A stretch of DNA of 64,000 nucleotides from Acidobacteriota bacterium (GTDB lineage: Bacteria > Acidobacteriota > Vicinamibacteria > Vicinamibacterales > UBA2999). The position numbers and the translations under genes were made by a program. The DNA lies in contig JBEGVQ010000093.1 in the NCBI GenBank assembly GCA_041178345.1, positions 14,496 through 78,495 on the forward strand, given 5' to 3'. Below the pieces are notes generated by a model, which saw only the letters and a list, made by a program, of their open reading frames with translations, was not told the origin of the DNA and made no database searches. How positions within the stretch are numbered: position 1 is the first letter of the stretch; the number at the start of each line of letters is the position of its first letter. Positions 1 to 26,244 of this stretch are shown piece by piece.

Positions 1-998
1 GCGAGGTCCGCACGCTGCGGGCGCGCCAGGCTCAGCCCTACGGCCCCGGCAGCATTGTCGGCGAGAGCGCGCCGATCGTCGCCGTGCGGTCGATGCTCGA
101 GAAGATTGGCGTCAGCCCCGCGTCGACGGTGCTGCTGACCGGTGAGAGCGGCACGGGCAAGGACCTGGCCGCCAAGGTCATTCACTACAGCAGCAACCGC
201 GCGGCGCGGCCGTTCATGAACATCACCTGCTCGGCGCTGCCCGAAACGCTGCTCGAAAGCGAGCTGTTCGGCCACGAACGCGGGGCGTTCACGGGCGCCG
301 ATCGGCAGAAGCACGGCCTGCTCGAATCGGCCGACGGGGGCACGGTGTTTCTCGACGAGATCGGCGAGATGGTGCCGCTGCTGCAGGCGAAGCTGCTGCG
401 CTTCCTGGAGGAGAAGTCGTTCAAGCGCGTCGGCGGCTCGGCCGACATCAAGGTGGACGTGCGGGTGATCGCCGCTACCAACCGCTCGCTGCAGGACGAG
501 GTCCGGAAGGGGCGCTTCCGCGAGGACCTGTTCTACCGCTTGAACGTGATGGCGGTGCCGCTGCCGCCGCTGCGTGATCGGCGCGACGACATCCCGCGGC
601 TGCTGCGGCACTACATCGACCTCTTCAACACCGAGTTCCGGAAGAAGATCTCGGGCGTGTCGCCCGGCGCCATGAAGATGCTGCAGGCTTACGCCTGGCC
701 CGGCAACGTCCGCGAGTTGCGCAATGCCGTCGAGCGGGCCATGCTGCTGACCGAGAGCGCCGAGCTGTCCGAGGCGCAGTTCGCCATGCTCGTGTCGGGG
801 GACGCGGAGTTGTCGGCGGGCATGGGACTGCCGGCCGGCGGCATCAATCTCGAGGAGCTCGAGCGGTCGCTGGTGGTCCAGGCCCTCGAGCGCAGCGGCT
901 GGAATCAGACCAAGGCGGCGACGCTGCTCGGCCTCAACCGCGACCAGATCCGCTATCGAATCGAGAAGTTCAAGCTGGAGAAGGCAACTCCACGGTAA
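1..998 (+). CDS. sigma-54-dependent transcriptional activator (NtrC/Fis family); 5' end lies outside the window
   Basis: Frame stays open to base 3 (..IVGESAPIVAVRSM..). AAA+ Walker A GESGTGKD, GAFTGA loop (ESELFGHERGAFTGA), C-terminal Fis-type HTH (QTKAATLLGLNRDQIRYRI). Confidence 0.93.
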   Translation, partial: EVRTLRARQAQPYGPGSIVGESAPIVAVRSMLEKIGVSPASTVLLTGESGTGKDLAAKVIHYSSNRAARPFMNITCSALPETLLESELFGHERGAFTGADRQKHGLLESADGGTVFLDEIGEMVPLLQAKLLRFLEEKSFKRVGGSADIKVDVRVIAATNRSLQDEVRKGRFREDLFYRLNVMAVPLPPLRDRRDDIPRLLRHYIDLFNTEFRKKISGVSPGAMKMLQAYAWPGNVRELRNAVERAMLLTESAELSEAQFAMLVSGDAELSAGMGLPAGGINLEELERSLVVQALERSGWNQTKAATLLGLNRDQIRYRIEKFKLEKATPR

Positions 999-2055
999 CG
1001 ATCGTGCCGCCGCCCGGCGGACAGGTCACGTGGATGCGGCCCTCGTGCAGTTCGACCAGCCGCTTGGCCGTGGCCATGCCCAGGCCGGTGCCCCGCGCCT
1101 TGGTCGTCTTGAACGGACGAAACAGCGCCGCGCGGATCTCGGGGTGAATGCCGGGACCATGGTCGGCGACCGCCACCCGCAGCCAGCCGTCCGCCGGCGT
1201 CATCGACACCGTAATCGCGCCCTTGCCGTGCATTGCCTGCGCCGAGTTGATTAACAGATTCTGGAACACGATGGTCATCAGCGACGGATCGAGCAGCAGG
1301 GCCGGCGCCTCGCCGGCAATGGTGACCTCGAGACCGTGAAAGGCCGGATCGGCCTTCATCAGGTCGGCCAATCTCGACAGCAGGGCGCGCACGTCGGTCG
1401 CCGACAGCTTGGGTTGAGGCGGCCGCGCGAACACCAGCAGGTCCTGGATCAGGATATTGAGCGCGTCGATGCGGGCGATGATCTCCTTGATGATCGCACC
1501 GTCGCCGGACTCGCCCTTCATGCGCGAGCCAATCACCTGGATGGCGCCGCGCACGGCGGCCAGCGGGTTCTTCACTTCGTGCGCAATCACCGCGGCCATC
1601 TCGCCCAGGCGGGCCATGGCGCTCGCCTCGCGCAGGCGATCCTCGAGGTCGGCCCGGCTCGACAGGTCGTGCAGGATGCCGGTGAAGTGCGGCTCGCCGT
1701 CAATCTCCATCCGGCCGACTGACAGGTGCAGCGGGAAGGTGTGGCCATCCTTGCGGCGGCCGGTGACCGCCCGGCCAATGCCGATGACCTTGCGCTCGCC
1801 GGTCCGGAGGTGGTTCTCCAGGTAGCCGTCGTGTTGCGAGCGATCCGGTTCGGGCATCAGGAGTCTGACGTTCCGGCCGATCGCCTCTGCCTCGCTGTAG
1901 CCAAACATCTGCTGGGCCGCGGCGTTGAACACCTCGACCGTGCCCTTCGCGTCAATCACGATGATGCCGTCGACGGCGGCGTCGACCACCGCGCGCCAGC
2001 GCGCCTCGGCAATGCGACCGGCGTCCATCAACTTGTGCGGTTCGGTGTCATTCAT
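970..2055 (-). CDS. PAS-domain sensor histidine kinase
   Basis: N-terminal PAS fold, H-box HEVKNPLAAV, HATPase_c boxes (DHGPGI, GTGLGM). Its 3' end overlaps the activator gene convergently by 29 nt. Confidence 0.9.
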   Translation of the reverse strand: MNDTEPHKLMDAGRIAEARWRAVVDAAVDGIIVIDAKGTVEVFNAAAQQMFGYSEAEAIGRNVRLLMPEPDRSQHDGYLENHLRTGERKVIGIGRAVTGRRKDGHTFPLHLSVGRMEIDGEPHFTGILHDLSSRADLEDRLREASAMARLGEMAAVIAHEVKNPLAAVRGAIQVIGSRMKGESGDGAIIKEIIARIDALNILIQDLLVFARPPQPKLSATDVRALLSRLADLMKADPAFHGLEVTIAGEAPALLLDPSLMTIVFQNLLINSAQAMHGKGAITVSMTPADGWLRVAVADHGPGIHPEIRAALFRPFKTTKARGTGLGMATAKRLVELHEGRIHVTCPPGGGTIVTVELPSPA

Positions 2056-4222: not shown

Positions 4223-6031
4223 TCAAAAGTCGTGCATGGTCGCTGGTGGAAACGCGGCCCGCAACGCGTTCAGTACCGCGACCACGTCAATCGCCTCCTG
4301 CAGCAGGGCGCCGCCGACCGGAGTCAGGTAGCCGGCGGCCGCGAAGCCCATGCCAATCATGCTGAGCGCCATGCCGCCGACCGCGCTCTGCAGCGCAATG
4401 ACCCGCATCCGCCGCGCGATGTGCAGGAACTCATCCACCTTCTTCAGGGTGTTGTCGAGGGCAATCACGCCGGCCGCTTCGGCGGTCACGTCGCTGTGCT
4501 CGCCGATGGCCATGCCCACGGTCGCGGCCATCATCGCCGGCGCGTCGTTGATGCCGTCGCCGACATACAGTGTCGGCGCCAGCGCCGTTTCGGCGCGGAC
4601 GAGCGTCAGCTTCTGCTCGGGACTCTGTCCGGCGTGCACCTCGGTCACGCCGACCTTGTCGGCGAGGTACCGCACTTCAGACTCGCGGTCGCCCGACACG
4701 ATCAGCGTCTTTCGGAAGCCATGCTTCACGCCGAGGTGCTGCACGAACGATCGGCTGTCGGGGCGCGGCGCATCGCGGAACCGCAGGGTCGCGGCGTAGC
4801 GATGGTCGAGGGCCACCACGCACTCGAGGCCGCCGGCCGCCGGCGGCAGCTGACCCGCCGCGGACGGGTCGCGCGCAAGCAGTTGCGACCGGCCGGTCAC
4901 CATGACCTCGCGACCGAGCACGCTGCCGCGCAGGCCGGCGCCGGGCGGTTCGGTCACTTCGGCCGCTTCCGCCAGCCGGACCGCCTCGGCGCTGGCGGCG
5001 CCGAGCACCGCTCGCGCCAGCGGGTGCTTCGAGTAACGCTCGAGGCTGGCGACCAGCTTCAGGACTTCCTCCCTCGAGGAGCCGTCGGCCACCAGGATCT
5101 CCGTGAGGGTGGGCTCGCCGTAGGTCAGCGTTCCGGTCTTGTCGAAGATCGCCGTGCGGCAGGTCGCGATCGACTCCAGCACCGCCGGGCTCTTGACGAT
5201 GATCGCCCGGCGCGCGCAGAGCGAGATCGACCCGACAATGGCCACGGGAATGGCGATCAGCAGGGGGCACGGCGTGGCGATGACCAGCACGGCCAGGAAG
5301 CGCGTGGCGTCGCCGGTCGCCGCCCACGCGGCGAATGCGACGGCCAGCGCCACCGGCGTGTAGATCGCGCCAAGCTGGTCGCCCAGCCGGCGCAGCCGCG
5401 GCCGGGTGGCTTCCGAGTCGCGCATCACGTCCATGATCCGGGCGTAGCGCGAGTCGGCGGCCCGGCGCGTGGTCCGGATGACGAGCACGGCGTTGCCGTT
5501 GATCGCACCCGAGATCACCTGCGAGCCTCGCGTCTTGGTGATTTCGAACGGCTCGCCGGTGAGATAGGACTCGTCCATCACGCCGTGGCCCTCGAGGACT
5601 TGGCCATCGACCGGGCAGATCTCATGGGGGTGAATCACCAGGGTGTCGCCCACCGCGATGTCGCCAAGCGCGACCTCGGCCGTGGCCCCGTCCGTGCGGC
5701 GATGGGCCACGAGCGGCACGCGGCGGGCCAGCGCGTCAAGCACGGAGGAGGCGCTGCGCAGGGCGTAGCTCTCGAGGGCCGCGCCGCCGGCCAGCATCAG
5801 CACGATGATCGACCCGGCGAGATACTCGCCCAGCCAGAGCGAGGTCAGGATTGACATGCCGCCAAGCAGGTCGGCCCCGAACTCGCGGCGCAGGACCTTG
5901 CGGAACAGGTCCAGAAGCAAAGGCGCGCCGCCGAGCACGATGACTACCAACAAAGGCAGGTTCGAGGCCGCCACGGGAGCGCCCAGGCCGTATCGCAGGG
6001 CCAGGTGAGTCCCGATAGCCGCGAGACACAT
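4223..6031 (-). CDS. heavy-metal P1B-type ATPase with TPCP motif and no N-terminal metal-binding domain
   Basis: [29 protein letters not shown]4 motif ATPCPL, TM6 motif QEAID. Start set at ATG 6031; the upstream 119 codons of the ORF are His/Arg-rich and unlikely to be coding. Confidence 0.9.
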
Positions 6032-6253
6032 TAGCGCGATCGTCGTCGAAAGGCGCGGCGGCCGGGAGGTCTTCAAATGGGAATTCTTCCGCACGACTCG
6101 GGGGAAATCCCCGATTTCAGGCTGATTATGCGCCTTTTTGAGACGAAAAGCCGGGCGAGAGTCTTGCACTGGAGACTGGTAGGCCGGTGTTGTCGTGCAA
6201 TGCGGTGCGCGGACGGAACGGCCGGTCGGTGTCGTTTGCTGAGCGAGGTAGCG

Positions 6254-6601
6254 ATGGTTGCGATGATTCGAGTGGGTGTAGTGATGATGACGGTGATGTT
6301 CGGCTTGGCGGCGACCGTGTCGGCGCAGGCCGCGGCCGTGGAGAGAGGTGCGGCGGTCTACGCCGCCCAGAAGTGTTCCATGTGCCACGCCCTGGATGGA
6401 AAGGGACCGGCCAAAGGCCCCCTTGACGGCGTTGGCTCGAAGCTTTCCGCCGCCGAGATCCGAGAGTGGATCGTCAACCCGGCGGAGATGACCAAGAAGG
6501 CCAACGCCACGCGCAAACCAGCGATGCGCGCCTATCCCAACCTGCCGAAGGAAGACCTCGACGCCCTGGTGGCGTTCATGGTTTCAAAGAAGAAGGGTTA
6601 G
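6254..6601 (+). CDS. monoheme class I c-type cytochrome
   Basis: Signal peptide, CSMCH heme site, distal Met in PAMRAYP. GAGGT Shine-Dalgarno before ATG 6254. Confidence 0.88.
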
Positions 6602-6607
6602 ACGCCT

Positions 6608-6946
6608 ATGACCATCATCGGCCGCATCGCTTTGTTTGCCGGGGTCGCGCTGGTCGTGCCGGTCGTGACTGCCGCGGGGCAGACCCTGGAGCGGGGCGCG
6701 GCGGTGTTTGCCGCGCAGAAGTGCTCCCTTTGTCACGCCCTCGACGGCAAGGGCAATGCCAAGGGTCCACTGGACGCTATCGGCTCCAAGCTAAAGGCCG
6801 AGGAGATACGCAGTTGGATCGTCACACCGGCCGAGATGACCGCCAAGGTCAAGGCCGAGCGTAAACCGGCGATGAAGGCGTTCCCCAATCTGGCGAAAGA
6901 CGAGCTTGACGCGCTCGTCGCTTTCCTCGCCGCGAAGAAAAAATAG
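6608..6946 (+). CDS. monoheme class I c-type cytochrome, tandem paralogue of the previous gene
   Basis: CSLCH and PAMKAFP. About 70 percent identical by eye to the 6254..6601 product. Confidence 0.9.
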   Translation: MTIIGRIALFAGVALVVPVVTAAGQTLERGAAVFAAQKCSLCHALDGKGNAKGPLDAIGSKLKAEEIRSWIVTPAEMTAKVKAERKPAMKAFPNLAKDELDALVAFLAAKKK

Positions 6947-6961
6947 CCGTCCGGGACCGAT

Positions 6962-8314
6962 ATGCGCTTTGACTTGCCCTCAGCCGCCCGCAACCCTGTC
7001 AGCTTGATTGGAACCGCCGTGGCCACGGCGATGGCGGTGATCTTTTTCGTCCTGCTCGCCCTCGAGATGGGCGGCCAGCTCCAAAACCCGTACCTGGGCT
7101 TGCTGCTGTTCGTGGCGGTGCCCGCCGTCTTCCTGGTCGGCATGCTGCTCGTGCCCCTCGGGGCCTGGCGGCAGCGCCGGCGCGTCGCGGCCGGCAAGGT
7201 CACCGACGAATGGCCGGTCATCGACTTGCGCCTGCCGCGAACCCGCACGGTGGTCTTCACCGTCGCGATGATCACGCTCTTCAATGTGCTGGTCTTCTCA
7301 CTGGCCGCCTACGGCGCGGTCCATCACATGGAGTCGGCCGAGTTCTGTGGCTCGACCTGCCACACGGTCATGGAGCCGGAGTACGCCGCTTACCAGGTCA
7401 GCCCGCATTCGAAAGTCGGCTGCGTGGCCTGCCATGTCGGGCCCGGCGCGGGCGCGCTGATCGAATCCAAGATCGCCGGCACCCGGCAGCTCTGGCAGCT
7501 GTTCGCGGGCGGCTACCCCGCACCCATCCACTCGCCGGTCAAGACCATGCGGCCGGCGCGCGAGACGTGCGAGACCTGCCACTGGTCCGAGAAATCGCAT
7601 GGCGACAAGCTCCGACAGATTCGTGAATTCGCCGACGACGAGCAGAGCTCCGAGTCGGTGACGACGCTGCAGTTGCACGTCGGCGGCGGGCGCGCCGTCA
7701 ACGGCAACGGCTCCGGCATCCACTGGCACATGAACATCGACAACAAGGTCGAGTTCATCACCACCGACGCGCAGCGCCAGGTCATTCCGTGGGTGAAGTT
7801 CACCGACCACACCGGCAAGGTCACCGAGTACACGGTCGACGGCACGACCGCCGAGGAATTAGCCAAGGGCGAGTACCGCACCATGGACTGCATGGACTGC
7901 CACAACCGTCCCGCGCACACGTTCGAGCCGTCGGCCGAGCGGGCCGTCGACAATGCGATTGCCGCCGGGATCATTCCGCGCGAGCTGCCGTTTGCCAGGC
8001 GCGAGGCGGTGGCCGCGCTCAAGACCGATTTCCCCTCTCGGCAGGAGGCCTTTGCCGGCATCGAGGCGAAATTGCTCGAGACCTACCGGCCCCAGACGAC
8101 CGACGCCGCGGCAGTGGCGCGAATCATCGCCGGCGTGCAGGACCTCTACGGACAAAACGTGTTCCCGGCCATGAAAGTCGGGTGGGGCACCTATCCCAAC
8201 AACATCGGCCACCTGACGTCGCCGGGCTGCTTCCGTTGCCACGACGACAACCACAAGGCCCCCAGTGGGAAGACCATCGCGCAGGACTGCGAATCGTGCC
8301 ACAAGATGCCGTAG
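6962..8314 (+). CDS. membrane-anchored multiheme cytochrome c with a NapC/NirT/CymA-like N-terminal part
   Basis: Two N-terminal TM helices. Heme motifs CGSTCH (CX3CH), CVACH, CETCH, CMDCH, CFRCH, CESCH. Confidence 0.75.
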   Translation: MRFDLPSAARNPVSLIGTAVATAMAVIFFVLLALEMGGQLQNPYLGLLLFVAVPAVFLVGMLLVPLGAWRQRRRVAAGKVTDEWPVIDLRLPRTRTVVFTVAMITLFNVLVFSLAAYGAVHHMESAEFCGSTCHTVMEPEYAAYQVSPHSKVGCVACHVGPGAGALIESKIAGTRQLWQLFAGGYPAPIHSPVKTMRPARETCETCHWSEKSHGDKLRQIREFADDEQSSESVTTLQLHVGGGRAVNGNGSGIHWHMNIDNKVEFITTDAQRQVIPWVKFTDHTGKVTEYTVDGTTAEELAKGEYRTMDCMDCHNRPAHTFEPSAERAVDNAIAAGIIPRELPFARREAVAALKTDFPSRQEAFAGIEAKLLETYRPQTTDAAAVARIIAGVQDLYGQNVFPAMKVGWGTYPNNIGHLTSPGCFRCHDDNHKAPSGKTIAQDCESCHKMP

Positions 8315-8378
8315 GAAGTTGCAGGGCGAATGTCGACCAGTGCACTTGCAGTGACCGTTCGAGAGAAGAGAGGATGAC

Positions 8379-9401
8379 GTGAGAATACGTCCAATCGTGT
8401 TCATGAACATCGCCGCCACGCTGCTGTTCTCGGGCGTGCTGGTGGCCACGGTAGCGCAGACCGCGCCGGTGGCCGCGTCCCCGGCGCCTGCCGCAGCCTT
8501 TGCAGACCCGACCGCCAGTCCGGCGGCGCCGGTCACGGCCGAACCGGCCGAACCGGCGCCCCAGGCGGCGCCTTCCACACCCCAGGCCGGCTATGTCGGC
8601 GCGGAAGCCTGCGCGACCTGCCACGAGGGGTACGACGCCTCGATCAAATCGTCCAAGCACGGCCAGGTGAAGGACGCCCGGACGCCGGCGGCGGCACAGG
8701 GGTGCGAATCGTGCCACGGCCCCGGCGAGGCCCATGCCAACAACCCGGAGAAGGTCAAGCCGCGGCAGTTCGACAAGCTGTCGGCCAAGGCGGTGACCGA
8801 CACCTGTGCGACCTGCCACAACCGCGGTCCGCACGCGCTGTGGCAAGGCAGTCAGCACGAAGCGCGCAACGTCTCGTGCGTGAGCTGCCACAGCATTCAC
8901 CAGCCGAAATCGGCCAAGGCCCAGCTGAAGACCGCCAATCAGCAGATGCAGTGCATGTCGTGCCATCGCGACAAGGTGGCGAAGCTCGATCGCTCGGGCC
9001 ATATGCCGGTGCGCGAGGGCAAGATGGAATGCACGTCATGCCACAACCCGCACGGTTCGACCAACGTGCGCCTGCTGAAGACGGGCACGTCGATCAACGA
9101 GTCGTGCTCCAGCTGTCACACGGAGAAGCGCGGCCCGTTCCTGTTCGAGCATGCGGGCATCAGCGGCGACAGCTGCGCCACCTGCCACGACCCGCACGGC
9201 TCGAACAACGACCGCATGCTGGTGGCGAAACTCCCGTTCCTGTGTCAGCGCTGCCACAACCACACGCGGCATCCGTCGACCATTTACGACAACCGGGTTC
9301 TGGGAACCAGCAACCGGCTCTACAGCCGCAGCTGTGTCTCCTGCCACTCAGCCATTCATGGTTCGAACCATCCGGCCGGTTCGACGTTCTTGCGGCAGTA
9401 G
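8379..9401 (+). CDS. periplasmic decaheme c-type cytochrome, DmsE/MtrA/PioA family
   Basis: Ten CxxCH motifs. C-terminal CVSCHSAIHGSNHP is typical of the family. Signal peptide followed by an Ala/Pro-rich linker. Confidence 0.88.
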   Translation: MRIRPIVFMNIAATLLFSGVLVATVAQTAPVAASPAPAAAFADPTASPAAPVTAEPAEPAPQAAPSTPQAGYVGAEACATCHEGYDASIKSSKHGQVKDARTPAAAQGCESCHGPGEAHANNPEKVKPRQFDKLSAKAVTDTCATCHNRGPHALWQGSQHEARNVSCVSCHSIHQPKSAKAQLKTANQQMQCMSCHRDKVAKLDRSGHMPVREGKMECTSCHNPHGSTNVRLLKTGTSINESCSSCHTEKRGPFLFEHAGISGDSCATCHDPHGSNNDRMLVAKLPFLCQRCHNHTRHPSTIYDNRVLGTSNRLYSRSCVSCHSAIHGSNHPAGSTFLRQ

Positions 9402-9413
9402 CGGAGGCCAATC

Positions 9414-11606
9414 ATGCGAAACAGAATATGGATGGCGGCGGCCCTGACCCTGGCGATGACCGGGTCGGCGGTCGCACAGAACCCGCCGACGCTTCCCGCT
9501 CTGACCGATCCGGTCGACGTGGCGCGCAGCCAGACGACCGGGAAGGTCTACGGCTCGATTGACTTTGGCGGCCGCATTACGCAGGTCGACGGCGACGAAG
9601 CGCGGTTCCAGCGCTACCGCGACCTGCGCGGCGGCATTTACGGCACCAACATGCTGCTCGGGCGCCGGACCGACGACTGGAACTTCGAAGTCCAGGGCTG
9701 GAACGCCGGGTATCGCGATCAGCGCTACCTGCTCAACTTCCAGCGGGTCGGCCGCCTCACGGCGAGCTTCCTGTGGGATCAGATACCGATGTTCATCAGC
9801 CGCGACACGCGGACCCTGTACACGCAGACCGCGCCGGGCGTGTTCCGCATCGAGGATGCGATCCAGCAGGAGATTCAAGCGGGCGCCCGCAACCTGCGCA
9901 ACTTCGAAAGCCAGGCGGTACGCTTCGACATGAAGACGGAGCGGCAGATCGGCCAGGCCGACGTCAAGTTCGCGTTCGACCGCTCCACCGACATCACGCT
10001 GCTGGTACGCAACACCACCCGCGATGGCGCCATCCCGTTTGGCGGTACTTTCGGATTCAACAACGCCGTCGAACTGCCGGTGCCGGTCGACTGGCGCCAC
10101 ACCGAGCTGCAGTCGGCACTCGAGTGGGGCAACGACACCGGCATGCTGCGCATCGGCTGGGACGGTTCGACCTTCGACAACAACGTCGAGAGCGTGACCT
10201 GGGACAACCCCCTGCGCTTCGGTCCCGACGCGGCCGGTCAGCCGTCGCAGGGCCGCATGTCGCTCTGGCCCGGCAACACCCTGACCTACCTGCACGGCAC
10301 CGGCGCCGTCAGCCTGCCGGCCCGCACCCGTCTGACTGCCTACGTCGCGTTGGGACAGGGCCGCAGCAACGAAGAACTGCTGCCGTTCACCATCAACACG
10401 GCGATTGCACCGATTGCGCTGGCGCGTTCGACCGCGCTGGCCGAAAACCAGATGACGATCGCGCAGTTCACGCTGGCGTCGCGGCCGTCGCGGGTGGTGT
10501 CCGTCAACGCCAAGTACCGCTATTCCAACGTCGACGTCCAGACGCCGGTCTTCGATCGGCCGCTGGGAGATGTGGCCTACGACACGACCTTCAGGCCAGC
10601 CGCGGCCGCGTCATCCGAGTACCACTCGGTCAAGCGCGCGACTTTCGACGCCGACGCGGCGTTCCAGCTGGTGCCGACCACCTCGCTTCGGGTCGGCTAC
10701 AGCCATCTCGCCTCTGACTACACCTATCGGATCTGGGAGCAGACCGCCGAGGACGTGTTCCGGGTCTCGCTCGACACGACCGGTAACCAGTACTTCATGT
10801 TCCGCGGCGTTTACGAGAACCGCACGCGCGAAGGCGAGCAGTTCGACGCCCACGTGCTGGCAGAGGTCGGCGAGCTGGCCGACATGCGCCACTACGATGT
10901 CGCCAACCGCGATCGGCAGCGGTTCACGCTGATCGCCAACGTCATGCCCGGCGGCATCTTCGGGCTGACCGCGTCGGCCGGTGTCGGCCGCGACGAGTAT
11001 CGCGACAGCGGCGCGGGCCTGCAGTCGTTCGACTCGGATCAGTACTCGGCGGGCTTCTCCGTGTCGCCCGACGACCGCTACAACCTGACCGCCAGCTACG
11101 GGTGGGAACGCTACGAGTCGCTGCAGCTGTCGCGCGGCGCCAACAACGCCGCAGACCAGGCCAACCCGCTGCGCAACTGGACCACCAACTACACCGGCAA
11201 GGTCAACTTCCTCGAGGCCGGGTTCGACATCGATGCGATCGAACGCACCGCGGTCCGGCTGTCGGCCGACTGGAACCGCTCGAACGACACCTATCTCTAC
11301 GGACTGGTCACCGGCTCGCCGCTGGTTGCGCCCGAGCAACTGCCGCCCGTGAAGAACGAGTTGCTGCGCGGCGAGATTGACGTGACTTACGAGCTGACCC
11401 GCAACCTGCGCTTCGGCGTGGCCTACTGGTACGACGACTACGACGTGCAGGACTTCGCGCTGGGGCCGACCACCTTGAGCGGCCTTGCCTTGCCGGCGGT
11501 CCAGGAGGGACAGCCGGTGGTCGCCACCAACGCGCTGCTGCTCGGTTACCTGTATCGGCCTTACACCGCCCATGCCGGTTTCGTGAAGTTCACCTACCTC
11601 TGGTAG
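9414..11606 (+). CDS. MtrB/PioB-family decaheme-associated outer-membrane beta-barrel protein
   Basis: 730 aa with a signal peptide. N-terminal ..ARFQRYRDLRGG.. block, alternating beta-strand pattern, aromatic C-terminus ..FVKFTYLW. Starts 12 nt after the decaheme gene. Confidence 0.8.
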   Translation: MRNRIWMAAALTLAMTGSAVAQNPPTLPALTDPVDVARSQTTGKVYGSIDFGGRITQVDGDEARFQRYRDLRGGIYGTNMLLGRRTDDWNFEVQGWNAGYRDQRYLLNFQRVGRLTASFLWDQIPMFISRDTRTLYTQTAPGVFRIEDAIQQEIQAGARNLRNFESQAVRFDMKTERQIGQADVKFAFDRSTDITLLVRNTTRDGAIPFGGTFGFNNAVELPVPVDWRHTELQSALEWGNDTGMLRIGWDGSTFDNNVESVTWDNPLRFGPDAAGQPSQGRMSLWPGNTLTYLHGTGAVSLPARTRLTAYVALGQGRSNEELLPFTINTAIAPIALARSTALAENQMTIAQFTLASRPSRVVSVNAKYRYSNVDVQTPVFDRPLGDVAYDTTFRPAAAASSEYHSVKRATFDADAAFQLVPTTSLRVGYSHLASDYTYRIWEQTAEDVFRVSLDTTGNQYFMFRGVYENRTREGEQFDAHVLAEVGELADMRHYDVANRDRQRFTLIANVMPGGIFGLTASAGVGRDEYRDSGAGLQSFDSDQYSAGFSVSPDDRYNLTASYGWERYESLQLSRGANNAADQANPLRNWTTNYTGKVNFLEAGFDIDAIERTAVRLSADWNRSNDTYLYGLVTGSPLVAPEQLPPVKNELLRGEIDVTYELTRNLRFGVAYWYDDYDVQDFALGPTTLSGLALPAVQEGQPVVATNALLLGYLYRPYTAHAGFVKFTYLW

Positions 11607-11637
11607 GTGGGCTCACAATCACCACAGGAGACATGCA

Positions 11638-12081
11638 GTGAACGAGGTACCCCGGCGACTGTTTCTTGACACAGTACTCGGACTTGGATTTGTGTCGACG
11701 GCCATCGCCATCCTCTATCCGGTTTGGCGTTACGTCATCCCACCGGCGTCGGCTGAACCGGCGACCGACAGCGTGGTTGCAGGCAAGGTGTCGGAATTCA
11801 GACCAAACTCGGGAGCGGTCCTGAAGTTCGGCACCAAGCCCGCGCTTCTGGTGCGGACCAGCGACGGCCAGTTCAAGGCTTTCAACGCCGTGTGCACGCA
11901 TCTCGACTGCACGGTGCAATACAAGTCGGACACCTCGCAGATCTGGTGCCCGTGTCACAACGGCTTCTACGACCTCTCCGGCGCGGTCGTGTCGGGCCCG
12001 CCGCCGCGCCCGCTCGAGAGCTTCCAGGTGAACCTGCGCGGCGAGCCCGGGCAGGAAGACGTCGTCATCTCACGCACGTGA
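11638..12081 (+). CDS. Rieske [2Fe-2S] subunit of a cytochrome bc-type complex
   Basis: RR motif (VPRRLFL) plus TM helix; [14 protein letters not shown] cluster boxes. Confidence 0.9.
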
Positions 12082-12100
12082 CCCAGGAGAAAGTGGCGCC

Positions 12101-13180
12101 GTGACCCAGCAGGTGTTGGCGTGGCTCGACGAGCGGCTCGACCTGAGCGCGCTACGCGCCTTTGTGGCCGAGAAGACCGTGCCGAAACATCGGCACAGCG
12201 TCTGGTACTACATGGGCGGCATCACCTTGTTCCTGGTGGGCGTCCAGGTGGCCACTGGCATCTTGCTGCTGCTCTACTACCGCCCCAGCGCGAGCGAGGC
12301 CTACGAGAGCGTCCAGTTCATCGTCAGCCAGGTGCAGTTTGGCTGGTTGATCCGCAACCTCCATGCCTGGTCGGCCAACCTGCTGATCCTGATGGCGTTC
12401 GTGCACCTGTTCAGCACGTTCTTCCTGCGCGCCTACCGCAAGCCGCGCGAACTGACCTGGGTGACCGGTGTCCTGTTGCTCTTCATCATGCTGGCTTTCG
12501 GCTTCAGCGGCTACCTGCTGCCGTGGAATGAGCTGGCGTTTTTCGCCACCAAGGTCGGCACCGGCAGCGCCGGCGCCGTCCCGGTGGTCGGCGACTTCAT
12601 CGTTCGCTTCCTGCGTGGTGGTGACGATGTGACCGGCGCGACGCTGACGCGGTTCTACGGCATCCACGTCGCCATCCTGCCCGCCATCACCACCGTGTTG
12701 CTCGGAGCGCACCTGCTGTTCATCCAGCGGCAGGGCATGAGCGTGCCCTTGAGCGTGGAGAAGCGGGAAAAGGCTGGCGAGAAGATCCCCCAGGAGCCGT
12801 TCTTCCCAAACTATGTCCTGCACGACGTGATGTGGTGGTACGTCGCGCTGGCAGTGCTCGCCGCGCTGTCGCTGTTCCTGCCGTGGGAGTTGGGCACGAA
12901 AGCGGATGCGTTTGCGTCGGTGCCGGCGGGCATTCGCCCCGAGTGGTATTTCCTCGCCATGTTCCAGACGCTGAAGCTGATCCCCAGCCACGTGATGGGA
13001 CTCGAAGGCGAGATGCTGGGCGTGCTCGGCTTCAGTGTCGCAGCCGGGCTGCTGCTGGTGATGCCGTTTCTCGATCGCCACGCGGCCGACGGCCGGCCTA
13101 GCAAACTGATCACCGCCGCGGGAATCCTCGCGGTCATTTACCTGGTCGTGTTCACCATATATGGCTACCTGGCTGCGTAA
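12101..13180 (+). CDS. cytochrome b subunit (b6 plus subunit IV-like fusion)
   Basis: Typical N-terminus ..[20 protein letters not shown].., heme-ligand His pairs in TM helices, PEWYFL motif. Confidence 0.92.
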
Positions 13181-14429
13181 CCTCACCTTCGTCGTGGCTG
13201 TGGTGCTGGCGCTGGCGGCGCCGGCCGCGGCCCAGCCCGCCCAGACTTCGGGATGCGAGACGTGCCACAAGGAGCATCCGCAACCGGCGCTGTCCACGCC
13301 GGCCCGCGACTTCTTGGCCACCGATGTCCATCGCGAGCGCGGCTTTACGTGCGTCGATTGCCACGGCGGGAACCCGAACGAAACCGACCAGGTGCGAGCC
13401 AAGGCGCCCGCCACCGGGTTCAAGGGCAAGCCCTCCCCCCAAGGGGTGACGGCCGTCTGCGCCCGGTGCCACAGCGACGCCGCGTTCATGCGCAAGTACG
13501 CGCCCAAGCAGCGGGTCGATCAGGAAGCCGAGTACGCGACCAGCGTGCACGGGCAGCAACTGGCCAAGGGCGACACCAAGGTCGCGACCTGCATCAGTTG
13601 CCATGGCGCGCACGGCGTGCGCCTGGTCAGCGATGCCAAGTCGCCGGTGTATCCGGTCAACGTCGCGGCGACCTGCACCACGTGCCACGCCGACACCGAG
13701 CGCATGAAGGGCTACAAACTGCCCGACGGATCGCCGCTGCCCACCGACCAGCGCGTCAAGTACGAGAAGAGCGTGCACTACACCGCCATGACGCAGCGCA
13801 GCGACTTGTCAGCGCCAACCTGCAACGACTGCCATGGCAACCACGGCGCCGCCCCACCGGGCGTCGGCGCCGTCACCAACGTCTGCGGCACCTGCCACGG
13901 CGTGTTCGCGACCAAGTTTGCGCTGAGCACCCATCGCCAGATCTTCGACCGTGGCTGCGTCGAGTGCCACAGCAACCACGAGATCATTGAGCCGACCGAC
14001 GCGATGCTCGGCACCGACAAGTCCAGCATGTGCATCACCTGCCACAGCGACGGCGACAACGGCTTCAAGGCCGCCGCCGGCATGCGGGCAGAGATCGACA
14101 AGCTGAAGGCGGCGATCGACCGCTCGCACGCGCTGGTGTCCAGCGCGGAGAACGCCGGCATGGCGATGGACGAGCAGAGCCTGGCGTTGCGTGAGGCGGC
14201 CAACCACCTGACCCTCGCCCGGACCGAGATGCACGCCTTCGAGCCCAAGGCGGTCACGACGGTCCTCGAAGCGGGCCTGGGTATCACCGCCAAGGTGGAT
14301 GCCGAGGGGCAAGCCGCGCTGGAAGAAGTGTCGTTCCGCAAGACCGGCCTGGCGGTGTCGCTCGGCGCCATTCTGCTGGTGGTGGTCGCGCTGTGGCTGA
14401 AGATTCGCAGCCTCAGGGCGACCGATTGA
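13161..14429 (+). CDS. nonaheme c-type cytochrome with a C-terminal membrane anchor
   Basis: Nine CxxCH motifs, signal peptide, C-terminal TM ([17 protein letters not shown]). Overlaps the cyt b gene by 20 nt. Confidence 0.85.
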
Positions 14430-14444
14430 ACGCAGATTAGCGCC

Positions 14445-14460
14445 GGGCACGGCGATTGCT
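14445..14460 (+). promoter_or_regulatory. candidate sigma-54 (-24/-12) promoter GGGCACGGCGATTGCT
   Basis: GGCACG-N4-TTGCT with correct GG-N10-GC spacing, about 20 nt upstream of the usp GTG. Confidence 0.55.
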
Positions 14461-15510: not shown

Positions 15511-15526
15511 GGGCACGCGGATTGCT
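15511..15526 (+). promoter_or_regulatory. candidate sigma-54 (-24/-12) promoter GGGCACGCGGATTGCT
   Basis: Differs from the 14445 element at two positions inside the N4 spacer. Lies 59 nt upstream of the hsp20 ATG. TTTCAG-N8-CTGAAA inverted repeat at 15426..15445, about 85 nt upstream. Confidence 0.55.
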
Positions 15527-21764: not shown

Positions 21765-23201
21765 TTATGGCTTCTTGTGCACGTGGCCGGATGGTTTTCC
21801 GTCGCCGACCAGGACCGTGCCCATCAACCCGCCCTCGGCGTGATCGAGGATGTGGCAGTGGATCATCCACTCCCCCGGCCGCTCGTCGAACGTCACCAGC
21901 AACCGCACCGTCGTCTTCATCGGCACGTTGACCGTGTCCTTCAGCGCCAGCGGCCGCACCGGCTGGCCCTGGTCGTCGATGACCTGGAAGAAATATCCGT
22001 GAAGATGGTACGGGTGGTCCCAGTCGCTGTCGTTCTTGACGGTCCAGAGCTGCGTTTCCCCGAGCCGGGCCCGAAAGGGCTCCGCCTTCCAGAAGGGCAC
22101 GCCGTTGATGCGGAACTCGGACTTGCCATTCTCCATGGGCGGCAGCGTCAGTACCATCTCCACCGGTGTCGCGCCTTCGACCGTTGGCACCGGGAGGGCG
22201 CGCTTCACGCGCACCGGCGGCGCGGTCACCGCCGGCTCCTTCGTGAACTCGATCGTCAACACGTCCTCGACGCCGCGATACTGCACGCTGCCGTATCCGC
22301 GGTTGTAGAGCATCGCGCGCAAGGTCAGCGGTGTGCCCGCCGTGCCCTTCGGCGTGACGATCACGTCGAAGCGCTCGCCTGGCGTGATCAGCAGGATGTC
22401 GGTCGTCACCGGCCGCTCCTGCAGCCCGCCGTCGGCGCCGATGACCGTGAACATCTGGCCGTCGAGATCGAGATAGAAGAACCGGCTCCTGGCGGCGTTG
22501 ACGATGCGCCAGCGTTGCGGAGCGCCGGGACGGGCGCGCAGCACCGGGTGGGTGCGGCCGTTCACCAGCACGTAGTCGCCCTCGCGGCCAAACACCATGC
22601 CGGCCGAGCCGCCACTGTCGGCGGGCTCGAGCCGGCCCCCGGCGTCGAAGCCGATGTCGCTCAACACCAGCGTCACCTGGTCGGCCACGCCGACGCCGTC
22701 ATTGGGATCCTCGACGAGCAGCGCGCCGTAGAGGCCAAAGCCGACCTGCGCCGCGGACCTGACGTGCGGGTGATACCAGTAGAGTCCCGCGTCGCGCACG
22801 ATGAAGTCGTAGACGAACGACTCGCCCTGATTGACCTCAGGCTGCGAGATGCCGGGGACGCCGTCCATCTCGATCGGCACGCGCAGGCCATGCCAGTGAA
22901 CCGTGGTCGGCTCTCTCAGTTCGTTCTTGAAGTGCACGATCAGCCGATCGCCGATGCGCGTCTTGATGAGCGGCCCGGGCAACCCGCCGTCGTAGGTCCA
23001 CGCCTGCGCGCGTTTACCCGGAGCGACCTCGACCTCGGCCAGCCGGGCCGTCAGGGTGATCTCCACCACTTTCGGATCGGGATTGGTGTCAATCGACTCC
23101 TTGAGCTTGAGGCCCGCGTCCCAGCCGGGCGGCGCCATCGGCTGAGCCGCAGCCGATAAGGGCAGGAGAAGACACATTACGAGCAAGCTCAGCATCGCCA
23201 T
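21765..23201 (-). CDS. three-domain multicopper oxidase (CopA/CueO-like)
   Basis: HWHGLRVP, WYHPHV, HCHILDHAEGGLMG copper sites. Signal peptide from ATG 23201 (MAMLSLLVMCLLLPLSAAAQ). Confidence 0.9.
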   Translation of the reverse strand: MAMLSLLVMCLLLPLSAAAQPMAPPGWDAGLKLKESIDTNPDPKVVEITLTARLAEVEVAPGKRAQAWTYDGGLPGPLIKTRIGDRLIVHFKNELREPTTVHWHGLRVPIEMDGVPGISQPEVNQGESFVYDFIVRDAGLYWYHPHVRSAAQVGFGLYGALLVEDPNDGVGVADQVTLVLSDIGFDAGGRLEPADSGGSAGMVFGREGDYVLVNGRTHPVLRARPGAPQRWRIVNAARSRFFYLDLDGQMFTVIGADGGLQERPVTTDILLITPGERFDVIVTPKGTAGTPLTLRAMLYNRGYGSVQYRGVEDVLTIEFTKEPAVTAPPVRVKRALPVPTVEGATPVEMVLTLPPMENGKSEFRINGVPFWKAEPFRARLGETQLWTVKNDSDWDHPYHLHGYFFQVIDDQGQPVRPLALKDTVNVPMKTTVRLLVTFDERPGEWMIHCHILDHAEGGLMGTVLVGDGKPSGHVHKKP

Positions 23202-23377
23202 GGCAGGACACCAGTGCAAAATGCAGTCCTGTGATCGTCGCCGAAAATGGGCGGAGATCCGGGTGGAATTCCTCCCCGGGCGGGGGAATATCCCCGGCCC
23301 GCTCGCGGATCTTCGCGCCCGGCGCGCCGGTGCCACTGGCATGGTCTGTGCTCCCCGATCCGGGCAGGGAGCTCGAC

Positions 23378-23944
23378 ATGGCCACCATGACGCAATCCGC
23401 AAGCGGAACCACGACGCAGTTCGTCAGGCGCTTCATGGGCGCGCTGGCTCTCGATCCGACAACGTTTGAAGACGTCGAGTCCGACCGCGCCGCGGGCGGC
23501 CAGGCCGCCCTCGTGGTGTTGCTGACGTGCCTGGCGGGCGGCTTCGCGGTCGCCGGCAGTTCGCAGCTGAACGTCACCATGTTCATCGCCGGCCTGACCG
23601 CGACGCTCGGCGCGTGGGTGGTGTGGGCGCTCCTGATTACCACCATCGGCACGCTGGTCCTTCCGGAGCCGGCCACCAGCAGCCGGCCGGCAGAGTTGTT
23701 GCGCACGATGGGGTTTGCCGCCGCGCCCGGTGTCTTCCTCGCCTTTGGCGCCATGCGGGCGGTCGCGCCCATTGTCGTGGCGCTGGCGACGCTCTGGGTG
23801 GTTGCCGCGACGGTGCTCGCCGTGCGGCAGGCGCTCGACTATCGCAGCCTCGCCAGGGCGGCGGTCGTGTGCGTCGCGGCCGGGCTGGTAGCGTTTGGCA
23901 TGGTCGCCGCCGTGGGCCTGATGTTCGCCAGGCCGGTCAGCTGA
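23378..23944 (+). CDS. Yip1-like polytopic membrane protein
   Basis: Start at ATG 23378 (AGGGAG Shine-Dalgarno). ..FMGALALDPTTFEDVE.. followed by five hydrophobic helices. Confidence 0.6.
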   Translation: MATMTQSASGTTTQFVRRFMGALALDPTTFEDVESDRAAGGQAALVVLLTCLAGGFAVAGSSQLNVTMFIAGLTATLGAWVVWALLITTIGTLVLPEPATSSRPAELLRTMGFAAAPGVFLAFGAMRAVAPIVVALATLWVVAATVLAVRQALDYRSLARAAVVCVAAGLVAFGMVAAVGLMFARPVS

Positions 23945-25224: not shown

Positions 25225-26244
25225 TTATCGCGGGTGTGAAAAGGAGGCGGCGTTCGGGATCAACTGGAAGAACACCTCTTCGGGCGTGTTCCCGTGCCAG
25301 TGGCCGGCGAGCCTGGCGTAGCCGACCAGCGCCAGGAAGATCGCCGCCACCCCGATGGCGATCCGCGGCGCGGTGACCCGGCGACGGGTCCCGAGCGTCC
25401 GCATCTCCAGGGCGTCCTTCACCGGGCACGCGGTCACGCAGGTCAGGCAGCCGTTGCACTCGGGCGTGCGCACGGTCATCAGCCGGTCCACGGGAATCAA
25501 TGAGGGGCACGCCTTGGCGCACTTGCCGCAATCGATGCACGAGATCGGATCGCGCGTGATGCGCGTCGGGCTCAGCATCGAGACCAGGCCCATCAGCGCG
25601 CCGTACGGGCACAGGTACCGGCACCAGAAGTTCTTGGTCACCACCGACAACAGCACCAGGACGAGGCAGACCTGGATGGTCAGCCGGCCGGCGTCGCGGA
25701 AGAAATCGAGCATCTTCACGTCGGCGACCAGCCCGTAGGGGCTGGAGAGAAACGCGCTCAACGCCGGGACGGGCATGCTCACGACGGCATAGGCGAACAG
25801 GGCCAGGAGGATGTACTTCAGGCTGCGCAGCGGCAGGTCGGCCCAGCGCGGGAGCGTGAAGTTGCGGCCGAACATCTCGCGCCCGCCTTGCCAGAGCCAC
25901 TCGGAGATCGTGCCGATCGGGCACAGCCAACTGCAGAACGCCTTGCGGAACACCAGCGACATGGCCAGGAACGCCAGCAGCAGGAACAAGCCGGCGGGAT
26001 GCACCTCGGGAACGCTGGCGGTCAGCAGGAGGTACTTCAGGTTCATCAGGGAGGCCACCGGCAGCCAGCCCTCAACCCCGGGCGGGCGCGGGACGTAGAC
26101 GGTGGCCCCGGCTGTTTCGTAGAAACGAACCCAGAGGTAGAACCGCACGCCGATCCAGAGATTCAGGAGCAGGAACGCCACCTGCACGCTGTGCCGGACT
26201 AGCAGCGTCTGTTCAAGCGGGCGTTTGTCGTAGGCTCGGGCCAT
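25225..26244 (-). CDS. NapH/NosH/MauN-family membrane 4Fe-4S ferredoxin-type protein
   Basis: CSWLCPIGT and FWCRYLCPYGA membrane motifs, plus CIDCGKCAKACP and CNGCLTCVTACP clusters. Confidence 0.82.
   Translation of the reverse strand: MARAYDKRPLEQTLLVRHSVQVAFLLLNLWIGVRFYLWVRFYETAGATVYVPRPPGVEGWLPVASLMNLKYLLLTASVPEVHPAGLFLLLAFLAMSLVFRKAFCSWLCPIGTISEWLWQGGREMFGRNFTLPRWADLPLRSLKYILLALFAYAVVSMPVPALSAFLSSPYGLVADVKMLDFFRDAGRLTIQVCLVLVLLSVVTKNFWCRYLCPYGALMGLVSMLSPTRITRDPISCIDCGKCAKACPSLIPVDRLMTVRTPECNGCLTCVTACPVKDALEMRTLGTRRRVTAPRIAIGVAAIFLALVGYARLAGHWHGNTPEEVFFQLIPNAASFSHPR

Follow-up and report, generated by a model that had tools for sequence, protein, structure and literature searches.

Genes for an MtrAB-type porin-cytochrome conduit, an ImcH-family protein and a Rieske/cytochrome b/nonahaem complex in one predicted operon from Vicinamibacterales

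Among the described systems closest to the one reported here, the extHIJKLMNOPQS cluster of Geobacter sulfurreducens encodes a conduit beside the Rieske protein ExtO, the b6-like proteins ExtP and ExtQ and the large multihaem cytochromes ExtM, ExtN and ExtS (PMC5877670; PMC6148476). Other relevant systems are MtrAB of Shewanella, MtoAB of Sideroxydans and Gallionella, for which MtoC is a known partner, PioAB of Rhodopseudomonas, and the rus/petI pathway of Acidithiobacillus ferrooxidans. Here we analyse an eight-gene cluster at positions 6254-14429 (+) of a 64,000-nucleotide (nt) stretch of DNA, referred to below as the window, which belongs to contig JBEGVQ010000093.1 of an Acidobacteriota bacterium of the order Vicinamibacterales (assembly GCA_041178345.1) and has a G+C content of 65-71%. 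The cluster encodes two monohaem cytochromes c, an inner-membrane multihaem protein that we assign to the ImcH family, an MtrA-type decahaem cytochrome with an MtrB-type barrel, and a trio of Rieske protein, cytochrome b and nonahaem cytochrome. The explanation that we tentatively prefer is that these genes form an operon in which a conserved core has been joined by a general bc complex, and that electron export is its likeliest function.

The likeness to the Geobacter cluster is one of composition, since in both cases a conduit without an extracellular cytochrome is found beside a Rieske protein, a b6-like cytochrome b and multihaem cytochromes. The conduits themselves are unrelated, with the porin-like ExtI and the pentahaem ExtKL in Geobacter against MtrB and a decahaem here; Geobacter has a split cytochrome b where this locus has a fused one, the Geobacter cluster is without ImcH, and its multihaem cytochromes have 12, 10 and 4 haems compared with the one nonahaem cytochrome of this locus. 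Shewanella MtrAB is matched by ten haem motifs in register, a 26-strand barrel and adjacent genes in the order decahaem to barrel, while MtoAB and PioAB resemble the conduit described here in having no MtrC. The locus differs from the Mtr, Mto and Pio systems in its acidobacterial host and in its partners, which are ImcH and Rieske/cytochrome b and not CymA, MtoC, PioC or NetBCD. The quinol oxidoreductases CbcL, MtoC and MtrH are fusions of a nonahaem c with a dihaem b; a split version occurs in one relative (L008, see below) but is absent from the window, where the nonahaem cytochrome partners Rieske/cytochrome b and not a b561-type module. In A. ferrooxidans, a bc complex likewise shares one pathway with an iron-facing cytochrome of the outer membrane and with small carriers in the periplasm, and this bc complex could run in reverse (PMC10654088). 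However, the outer component Cyc2, in which porin and cytochrome are fused, is unrelated to MtrAB, the bc1 complex has a normal c1 and a separate operon, and the system is acidophilic, autotrophic and ubiquinone-based.

Candidate mtrA and mtrB genes have been listed for Acidobacteria, Luteitalea included (PMC5900883), PioAB homologues have been noted in Acidobacteria (PMC10654088), and MtrCAB is known from Bryobacterales, with no quinone oxidoreductase nearby (PMC8805035). Both the clustering of a conduit with Rieske/cytochrome b and the occurrence of MtrAB homologues in Acidobacteria are already known, and what is new is the combination of known parts. In the searchable literature we found no report of ImcH as the usual partner of conduits of the MtrAB type, of an MtrAB-type conduit fused to a Rieske/cytochrome b/nonahaem complex, or of a module-swap series in Vicinamibacterales.

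The eight open reading frames lie on the + strand with gaps of 6, 15, 64, 12, 31 and 19 nt and one 20-nt overlap, and the numbers of haem motifs in gene order are 1, 1, 6 (one CX3CH and five CX2CH), 10, 0, 0, 0 and 9. When the reading frames were read again, the layout, coordinates and spacing given in an earlier reading of this DNA (the initial annotation) were reproduced exactly. The unchanged eight-gene block is also present on seven independent metagenome contigs (L001-L006 and L015) and is therefore no assembly artefact. An intrinsic-terminator scan evaluated against shuffle expectation revealed no credible + strand terminator inside the cluster, and scanning for sigma-70 promoters and intrinsic terminators gave nothing exceeding that expectation. 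With gaps of at most 64 nt and no internal terminator, the tight one-strand packing noted earlier is supported, and the eight genes probably constitute a real operon, one that is probably sigma-54-driven.

The conduit is encoded by the fourth and fifth genes. The decahaem cytochrome (8379-9401, +; 340 amino acids, aa) is a predicted periplasmic protein of the MtrA/DmsE family, which passes the curated DmsE-family model TIGR03508 with 250.5 bits (cut-off 192.2); in its alignment to MtrA (PDB 6R2Q_A, E = 3.8e-58) each of the ten CXXCH motifs falls on one of MtrA, the tenth lying within CVSCHSAIHGSNHP close to the C-terminus. Metagenome gene callers use 8403 as an alternative start, which shortens the product to 332 aa. 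The N-terminus is hydrophobic and signal-like, as in proteins of the secreted type, so that the initial annotation of a secreted cytochrome with ten CXXCH motifs is confirmed. The same annotation likened an Ala/Pro-rich N-terminal linker to that of PioA; this has to be abandoned, because the length of the protein and its alignment equal those of MtrA (340 versus 333 aa, residues 21-336 on 14-330) and the Ala/Pro-rich stretch simply occupies the ordinary region before the first haem.

The barrel gene (9414-11606, +) begins 12 nt after the decahaem gene, and the pairing is kept in relatives in which the region upstream of the barrel is visible. The 730-aa product matches PF11854 (MtrB_PioB) with 253.4 bits (cut-off 23), residues 58-730 falling on profile positions 2-635, and MtrB (6R2Q_B) with E = 6.5e-9 at about 15% identity. 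The TIGR03509 match is full-length (E = 4e-57), but its 194.1 bits do not reach the naming cut-off of 240.05, which marks the protein as a divergent member of the MtrB/PioB family. The sequence ends in FTYLW and contains no cysteine, whereas Shewanella MtrB has a CXXC motif. An AlphaFold2 model generated from 120 homologues has a predicted local distance difference test (pLDDT) score of 78.8, a predicted template modelling (TM) score of 0.71 and 26 long strands, and a Foldseek search with this model retrieved 6r2q_B at E = 1.2e-34 (TM-scores of 0.76 for the query and 0.84 for the target, root-mean-square deviation 4.5 Å); the other matches were 22-strand TonB-dependent barrels with TM-scores of at most about 0.4. 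A first model from 14 sequences (pLDDT 48.5, weak fold match) was replaced by this one. The 730-aa protein is accordingly recognised as an MtrB/PioB barrel by family model and fold alike, as the initial annotation had supposed, and the family models, the alignments to MtrA and MtrB and the barrel model together substantiate its central claim of an MtrAB/PioAB-type porin-cytochrome conduit. Homologues of the barrel are abundant, with more than 1000 at E <= 1e-10 among 8000 scored candidates.

Neither the cluster nor the rest of the 64-kb window was found to encode an extracellular cytochrome of the MtrC/OmcA type; only four open reading frames of the window have two or more CXXCH motifs, namely those of the ImcH-like protein, the decahaem, the nonahaem and a nos-linked pentahaem cytochrome, and TIGR03507 gives only 26.7 bits, on the decahaem. 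An MtrC/OmcA-type gene was likewise not found in the clusters of relatives. We also considered a DmsEF-type conduit serving an extracellular reductase, which is unsupported, as no DmsAB-like genes adjoin the conduit in the window.

The 450-aa protein encoded directly upstream of the decahaem (6962-8314, +) was initially described as a CymA-like cytochrome with two transmembrane segments, and here the initial annotation needs to be corrected. Judged from hydropathy, as were all transmembrane segments in this study, there are three hydrophobic segments (residues 11-41, 40-70 and 94-121), which was the sole descriptive error found. They are followed by an atypical CX3CH motif (CGSTCH) at residue 129 and by CX2CH motifs at 154, 203, 310, 423 and 443. 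CymA, with about 190 aa, one transmembrane segment and four CXXCH motifs, is incompatible with this architecture in size, membrane topology and haem motifs. The NapC/NirT-like domain claimed for the protein is real, PF03264 being matched above its cut-off (31.2 versus 24.1 bits), but the similarity to NapC, NirT and NrfH is confined to residues ~94-209: the NrfH model TIGR03153 gives E = 1e-14, below its cut-off, NrfH itself (2J7A_C) is matched with E = 9e-5 over residues 108-209, and the TorC and NrfH models remain far below their cut-offs.

ImcH homologues have been defined by three N-terminal transmembrane segments, an atypical CX3CH motif and subsequent CX2CH motifs (PMC6295460). In ImcH of G. 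sulfurreducens (GSU3259) the motifs are at 132, 156, 205, 311, 428, 448 and 486 and the transmembrane segments at 13-35, 45-67 and 100-122 (PMC6295460); the protein in the window resembles it in its three transmembrane segments, the CX3CH right after the third of them, the near-identical spacing of the CX2CH motifs and the NapC/NirT/NrfH-like domain. The seventh haem of GSU3259 is absent here, as it is in the six-haem ImcH homologues of 450-455 aa that Zhong and Shi (2018) list from metagenome-assembled genomes of Acidobacteria (PMC6295460). Based on this architecture and the published motif table, the protein is assigned to the ImcH family of inner-membrane multihaem quinol dehydrogenases. 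No ImcH model match was obtained in NCBIfam or Pfam, and neither of the published homologues OFW05244 and OFW24447 was found when they were sought by motif coordinates among the retrieved proteins. Scanning 1.8 billion representatives yielded 758 relatives at E <= 1e-30; the CX3CH motif precedes the first CX2CH by about 24 residues in 144 of the best 150, among which 65 proteins have five CX2CH motifs and 37 have six. The 2018 survey reported no mtrAB or mtoAB adjacent to any imcH (PMC6295460). The arrangement in the window is an exception to that statement, and in most related loci with a visible upstream region imcH directly precedes the decahaem and barrel genes.

The first two genes encode class I monohaem cytochromes c. 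Copy 1 (6254-6601, +; 115 aa) has a signal peptide and the haem motif CSMCH and matches PF00034 (49.4 bits) as well as PF13442, while copy 2 (6608-6946, +; 112 aa, CSLCH) is a tandem duplicate with 64 of 85 residues (75%) identical in the mature part and 59% identity over the whole alignment, which bears out the high similarity estimated earlier at about 70%. Relatives usually have a single copy at the same position. The best PDB match is the monohaem domain of ActA from alternative complex III (ACIII; E = 3.7e-5), followed by CcoP and subunit II of caa3. A likeness to the shuttle MtoD, which the initial annotation mentioned, gained no support from sequence: no PDB chain named MtoD appeared among the matches at E <= 0.01 (the presence of an MtoD entry in the searched PDB set was not confirmed), and the proteins are alike only in position and size.

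Downstream of the barrel, the Rieske [2Fe-2S] subunit (11638-12081, +; 147 aa) has the motifs CTHLDC at residue 86 and CPCH at 104 and a hydrophobic, transmembrane-anchored N-terminus with a twin-arginine-like RRLFL motif; it matches PF00355 with 57.2 bits and PetC-like proteins at E = 2e-21. Cytochrome b (12101-13180, +; 359 aa) is a fusion of a b6-like N-terminal half with a C-terminal half similar to subunit IV (PF00033, 185.5 bits; PF00032), with the haem ligands H88/H102 (HX13H) and H189/H204 (HX14H) and the PEWY motif at 280, and its PDB matches include b6 (1Q90_B, E = 1.6e-63) and a bacterial cytochrome b (8SMR_I, E = 8e-53). The last gene (13161-14429, +) encodes a c-type cytochrome with a signal peptide, nine CXXCH motifs, multihaem Pfam domains and a hydrophobic segment at 390-421 that would serve as a C-terminal anchor; no relative was found in the PDB. 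All cofactor motifs of the Rieske protein and of cytochrome b are present, in agreement with the complete Rieske/cytochrome b/nonahaem complex described initially. A canonical cytochrome c1 or f is absent as third redox subunit, the third gene being that of the nonahaem cytochrome, which takes the place of c1/f in a bc-type complex with a non-canonical c subunit. Membership of the Geobacter ExtMNOPQS group was rejected at the equivalog level, as cytochrome b reaches 216.9 bits with the ExtP model (equivalog cut-off 290) and the ExtM, ExtN and ExtO matches, all on the nonahaem cytochrome, have E-values of only ~1e-3 to 1e-4; the complex is an analogue and not a member. The nonahaem cytochrome was also considered as a close relative of the CbcL-type nonahaem, which was rejected at only 28% identity to the nonahaem of L008.

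For comparison, 53 loci were collected by barrel- or nonahaem-based searches and the proteins of the window were mapped onto them by tblastn. The named homologues belong to metagenome-assembled genomes of Vicinamibacterales/Acidobacteriota, and a scan of reference genomes led to 3 loci. The commonest arrangement (type A) is cytochrome c-ImcH-decahaem-barrel, and the minimal form (type F, L011) consists of cytochrome c, decahaem and barrel only. Type B (L025 and L032) has cytochrome c-decahaem-barrel-Rieske-cytochrome b-nonahaem without ImcH, and type C comprises the window, L007, L010 and L030. In type D, represented by L026 and described as a twelve-gene supercluster, two conduits are in tandem (cytochrome c-decahaem-barrel-Rieske-cytochrome b-nonahaem-cytochrome c-ImcH-decahaem-barrel); the two barrels are 89% identical, with one conduit tied to the bc trio and the other to ImcH, and L025 and L029 come from the same organism. 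Type E is L008, in which the monohaem c is followed first by a nonahaem c (344 aa, C-terminal transmembrane segment) and a b561/Ni_hydr_CYTB protein (5669-7518, +), then by a divergent ImcH (49% identical) and by the decahaem and barrel; the nonahaem c and the b561-type protein form a split CbcL/MtoC-like module. The conserved core is formed by the monohaem c, ImcH, the decahaem and the barrel.

The trio is found directly after the barrel in 8-9 of about 28 distinct loci whose downstream region is visible (~30%). These loci fall in two deep clades, between which the barrels are ~62% identical, and in relatives of the second clade the start of the Rieske gene overlaps the barrel stop by 9 nt. 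The nonahaem gene always follows those of Rieske and cytochrome b in relatives, with or without a conduit. In L052 and L053 the trio stands alone with a monohaem c nearby, while L051 (3990-11272 on a 5.09-Mb contig) has the order cytochrome c-ImcH-Rieske-cytochrome b-nonahaem and neither decahaem nor barrel. In L046, whose barrel is 85% identical, a 564-aa membrane protein is encoded on the opposite strand between barrel and Rieske. Such a membrane protein of ~565-585 aa is always divergent from a stand-alone Rieske gene (L046, 751-2445; L052, 6470-8227; L053, 6536-8242; all on the - strand), with a faint DUF2339 match in L053, and the layout of L046 resembles a step on the way to the fusion found in the window. 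Identity of cytochrome b to that of the window is 82-88% in the conduit-less L051-L053 and 85-95% in conduit-linked loci, and given these close ranges the conduit-less and conduit-linked trios look orthologous.

Because orthologous copies stand alone or follow ImcH without a conduit, the trio is probably no module specific to the conduit but the general bc complex of the lineage, which here became fused to the conduit operon, and we read it as part of a conserved respiratory neighbourhood. Subdivision-6 Acidobacteria have aa3, cbb3 and bd oxidases (PMC5900883), and the aa3 and cbb3 enzymes imply a need for a quinol:cytochrome c oxidoreductase. Of the initial proposal that two quinone-pool interfaces, one of them CymA-like, serve one conduit, the presence of both modules stands and the CymA-like character of the first, which is ImcH, does not; the proposal as a whole is weakened by the occurrence of the trio without a conduit. 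The conduit-less locus L051, on its long contig, also contains a second, divergently oriented cytochrome c-ImcH pair (ImcH 47% identical), and its neighbours include genes for a sigma-54 activator, Usp, CBS, DUF4136 and VIT1.

The region upstream of the first cytochrome gene contains two tandem repeats of the GG(N)AA..TYCC type, GGGAATTCTTCC and GGGGGAAATCCCC (6079-6112, +), which are conserved in an alignment of the upstream regions of 20 loci (consensus G.G...T..TCC.C....(3)....GG....TT.C) and form a candidate activator-binding site. Downstream of them lies a sigma-54-type promoter-like element, GGGCGA-N5-TTGCA (6153-6168, +), with GG at -24 and GC at -12. In 11 of the 20 loci, the 350 nt preceding the first cytochrome gene contain the pattern GGC-N7-TTGC, compared with a background of one per 5667 nt or ~0.07 expected per region, the 20 regions being those of related loci and so not independent; several other loci have GGCAC-N5-NTGC at the promoter position. 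A strict scan for TGGCAC-N5-TTGC with up to two mismatches gave no more matches than chance and passed over the upstream region of the operon. The stretch 6077-6253 (+) can be read mechanically as an open reading frame extending the first cytochrome upstream, with protein-like conservation in L008 (GILP..IPDFR.IMRL), but what is really conserved is the DNA with its regulatory features, the tandem repeats and the promoter-like element.

A regulator is available nearby. Positions 1-998 (+) contain the 3' part of a gene for a sigma-54-dependent response regulator with an AAA+ activator domain and HTH_8 (Response_reg, Sigma54_activat and HTH_8 are called in L001 and L002; NCBIfam matches are of the NifA/AtoC/ZraR type), and positions 970-2055 (-) encode a FixL/AtoS-like histidine kinase with PAS, HisKA and HATPase_c domains, for which the FixL (235.9 bits) and AtoS (237.1 bits) models of NCBIfam are both below cut-off. 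The former is the probable regulator of the operon and the latter its probable sensor partner. A sigma-54 activator is encoded upstream of the conduit cluster in L010, L012-L014, L018, L025, L032, L035 and L041, and an activator together with a PAS kinase upstream in most loci. Two near-consensus sigma-54 elements on the + strand, both better than that of the operon, are located at 14446-14459 (GGCACGGCGATTGC), preceding a Usp gene (14482), and at 15512-15525 (GGCACGCGGATTGC), preceding an HSP20 gene (15585), which suggests that the conduit operon, Usp and HSP20 may belong to one stress- or oxygen-responsive regulon.

Judging by the predicted proteins, all parts for electron transfer from menaquinol through the periplasm and across the outer membrane are encoded together. 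We propose that the operon connects the menaquinone pool to extracellular redox material, which could be Fe(III)/Mn(IV) species or humic quinones. ImcH would oxidise menaquinol and reduce the decahaem directly or through the monohaem cytochromes (a direct route), the bc complex would reduce the same c-type pool via the nonahaem cytochrome (an indirect route), and the decahaem within the MtrB-type barrel would act as an outer-membrane conduit with no extracellular cytochrome of the MtrC type. The net direction would be electron export under O2 limitation, with reverse flow possible. We agree with the initial annotation that the direction cannot be read from the sequence; our preference for export, which falls short of even confidence, is due to three considerations. 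ImcH has so far been tied only to quinol oxidation toward high-potential acceptors (PMC6295460; PMC6148476), extHIJKL alone suffices in Geobacter for 50% of the reduction of Fe(III) oxide and 75% of that of Mn(IV) oxide (PMC5877670; PMC6148476), and a second Rieske/cytochrome b/c set in the window precedes nosZ, to which, from its position, it would supply electrons.

Several points weigh against this explanation. The loci compared are phylogenetically related, all being from one order; co-transcription of the eight genes is deduced from gene spacing; the -24 half of the promoter-like element in the window is weak (GGGCGA) and the element escaped the strict consensus scan; the ImcH assignment draws on architecture and a published table and not on an alignment to GSU3259; and the trio is not conduit-specific, which leaves its electron exchange with the decahaem presumptive. 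The lack of MtrC/OmcA in 64 kb, the universally kept class I monohaem c as first gene and the Cys-free barrel are moreover Mto/Pio-like traits, and MtoA and PioA form no function-specific clade (Baker et al., PMC8805035), so that trees cannot settle the direction. Electron uptake of the Mto/Pio kind deserves to be weighed as a possible, though less probable, alternative. Electrons from Fe(II), Mn(II), reduced humics or a cathode would then pass through the decahaem and the monohaem cytochromes to aa3/cbb3 oxidases or NosZ, and reversed Rieske/cytochrome b, possibly also ImcH, would push some of them uphill to quinone. Such a role would fit the absence of MtrC/OmcA from cluster and window, as in MtoAB/PioAB (PMC5566968), a class I monohaem c at the MtoD position in every cluster type, L011 included, the resemblance of the monohaem cytochromes to oxidase-serving cytochrome c domains, the P1B ATPase or VIT1 exporters and conserved multicopper oxidase nearby, the dedicated bc1 for uphill flow established in the Acidithiobacillus pet operon (PMC10654088) and the aa3, cbb3 and bd oxidases of subdivision-6 Acidobacteria (PMC5900883). 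Against it count the known role of ImcH in quinol oxidation only, the Geobacter extHIJKL conduit, which works in the reducing direction without an outer cytochrome, and the lack of detected MtoD similarity. Cultured Vicinamibacteria use menaquinone, and at its potential of about -74 mV the reduction of quinone by Fe(II) through an uncoupled ImcH would be unfavourable. The known relatives are heterotrophs with no obvious need for reverse electron flow.

The remaining alternatives concern the trio. Taken literally, the initial annotation implies two quinone-pool interfaces that evolved for one conduit, with the nonahaem cytochrome docking on the decahaem and with potential-dependent or bidirectional switching. 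This is unlikely in our judgement, even though two deep clades have the trio and the barrel gene fused (the stop and start codons overlap in one of them), no inner-membrane module other than the bc trio adjoins the conduit in L025 and L032, L008 has a split CbcL/MtoC-like module swapped in beside ImcH, Geobacter uses ImcH and CbcL in different potential windows (PMC6148476), and a nine-haem wire would suit long periplasmic transfer. The trio is orthologous to the copies in L051, L052, L053 and L046, about 70% of conduit loci lack it, and in an oxidase-bearing lineage that needs a general quinol:cytochrome c oxidoreductase it would be the obvious candidate. The opposite extreme, in which the conduit uses ImcH and the monohaem cytochromes only and the trio is an unrelated housekeeping set that landed there by genome rearrangement and has no role in extracellular electron transfer, we hold to be the least probable of all. 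The position of the trio does vary among close relatives, with a 2-kb divergent gene before Rieske in L046, and the commonest cluster type is without it; yet the fusion is tight in two clades (a 31-nt gap here, a 9-nt overlap elsewhere), the link of the trio to cytochrome c-ImcH in L051 indicates a maintained respiratory neighbourhood and not chance, and the Geobacter cluster is a precedent for a conduit clustered with Rieske/cytochrome b. A more speculative extension, which is doubtful, is a Q-cycle-coupled, proton-motive extracellular respiration: Rieske/cytochrome b would deliver electrons directly through the nonahaem cytochrome to the MtrA-type conduit when the acceptor has a high potential, as Mn(III/IV) oxides do, ImcH (in some relatives the CbcL-like module) would serve lower-potential acceptors or the reverse direction, and the PAS kinase and sigma-54 would provide the switch. 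If true, this would place a potential-tuned inner-membrane toolkit in the style of Geobacter on an outer-membrane wire in the style of Shewanella, in Vicinamibacterales.

Vicinamibacterales are among the most abundant bacteria of neutral soils and are regarded as aerobic heterotrophs; a widespread conduit would make them unrecognised players in the redox chemistry of Fe, Mn and humic substances. The cluster and its relatives show that the inner-membrane modules known from Geobacter (ImcH, CbcL-like, and Rieske/cytochrome b with multihaem c) are combinable with an outer-membrane module of the Shewanella/Sideroxydans type. The natural variants, in which the conduit is combined with ImcH, with bc or with both, is in tandem, or is missing, represent a ready comparative series, which could show whether Rieske/cytochrome b feeds or drains the conduit, a question that applies equally to the ext cluster of Geobacter.

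Among the neighbouring genes in the window, the second set on the + strand consists of a Rieske protein (33703-34218), cytochrome b (34215-35567) and a pentahaem c (35569-36792) directly upstream of nosZ (36808-38661), which encodes a Sec-dependent clade II enzyme (TIGR04246, 895 bits) and is followed by a gene for a 219-aa protein, nosD, nosF and nosY (to 42883). Like the conduit operon, this clade II nos cluster has its own Rieske/cytochrome b module, and it shows that the organism puts such a set beside a specific terminal enzyme. It differs in that its cytochrome b (450 aa, similar to ExtP plus ExtQ) belongs to another subfamily, with 29% identity to that of the operon, and in that the acceptor is a soluble enzyme and not an outer-membrane conduit. 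Away from the nos cluster, positions 25225-26244 (-) encode a polyferredoxin of the membrane that is similar to NapH/NosR (Fer4_5; TIGR02163, E = 1e-19).

Divergent from the operon, positions 4223-6031 (-) encode a 602-aa P1B heavy-metal ATPase (TIGR01525, 466 bits) that lacks an N-terminal metal-binding domain and has the membrane motif ATPCP, presumably indicating a Ni/Fe exporter of the TPCP type. The Fe/Mn exporter VIT1 is found in the same neighbourhood of relatives (L010, 4417-5103; L051, 16969-17526). The window contains two CopA/CueO-like multicopper oxidases (21765-23402 and 45481-46845, both -). At least 10 relatives (L010, L012-L014, L016, L018, L022, L029, L033 and L045) have an orthologue of the first (72-82% identical), which lies a few kb downstream of the conduit genes on the opposite strand, and this conservation may point to a connection with the redox chemistry of Mn, Fe or Cu. 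In L013 (10258-14023, -) and L024 (6750-7100, -), genes for a molybdopterin oxidoreductase, a 4Fe-4S subunit, a Rieske protein and DUF6755 adjoin the conduit on the opposite strand, a set that resembles an arsenite-oxidase-like or related periplasmic Mo enzyme.

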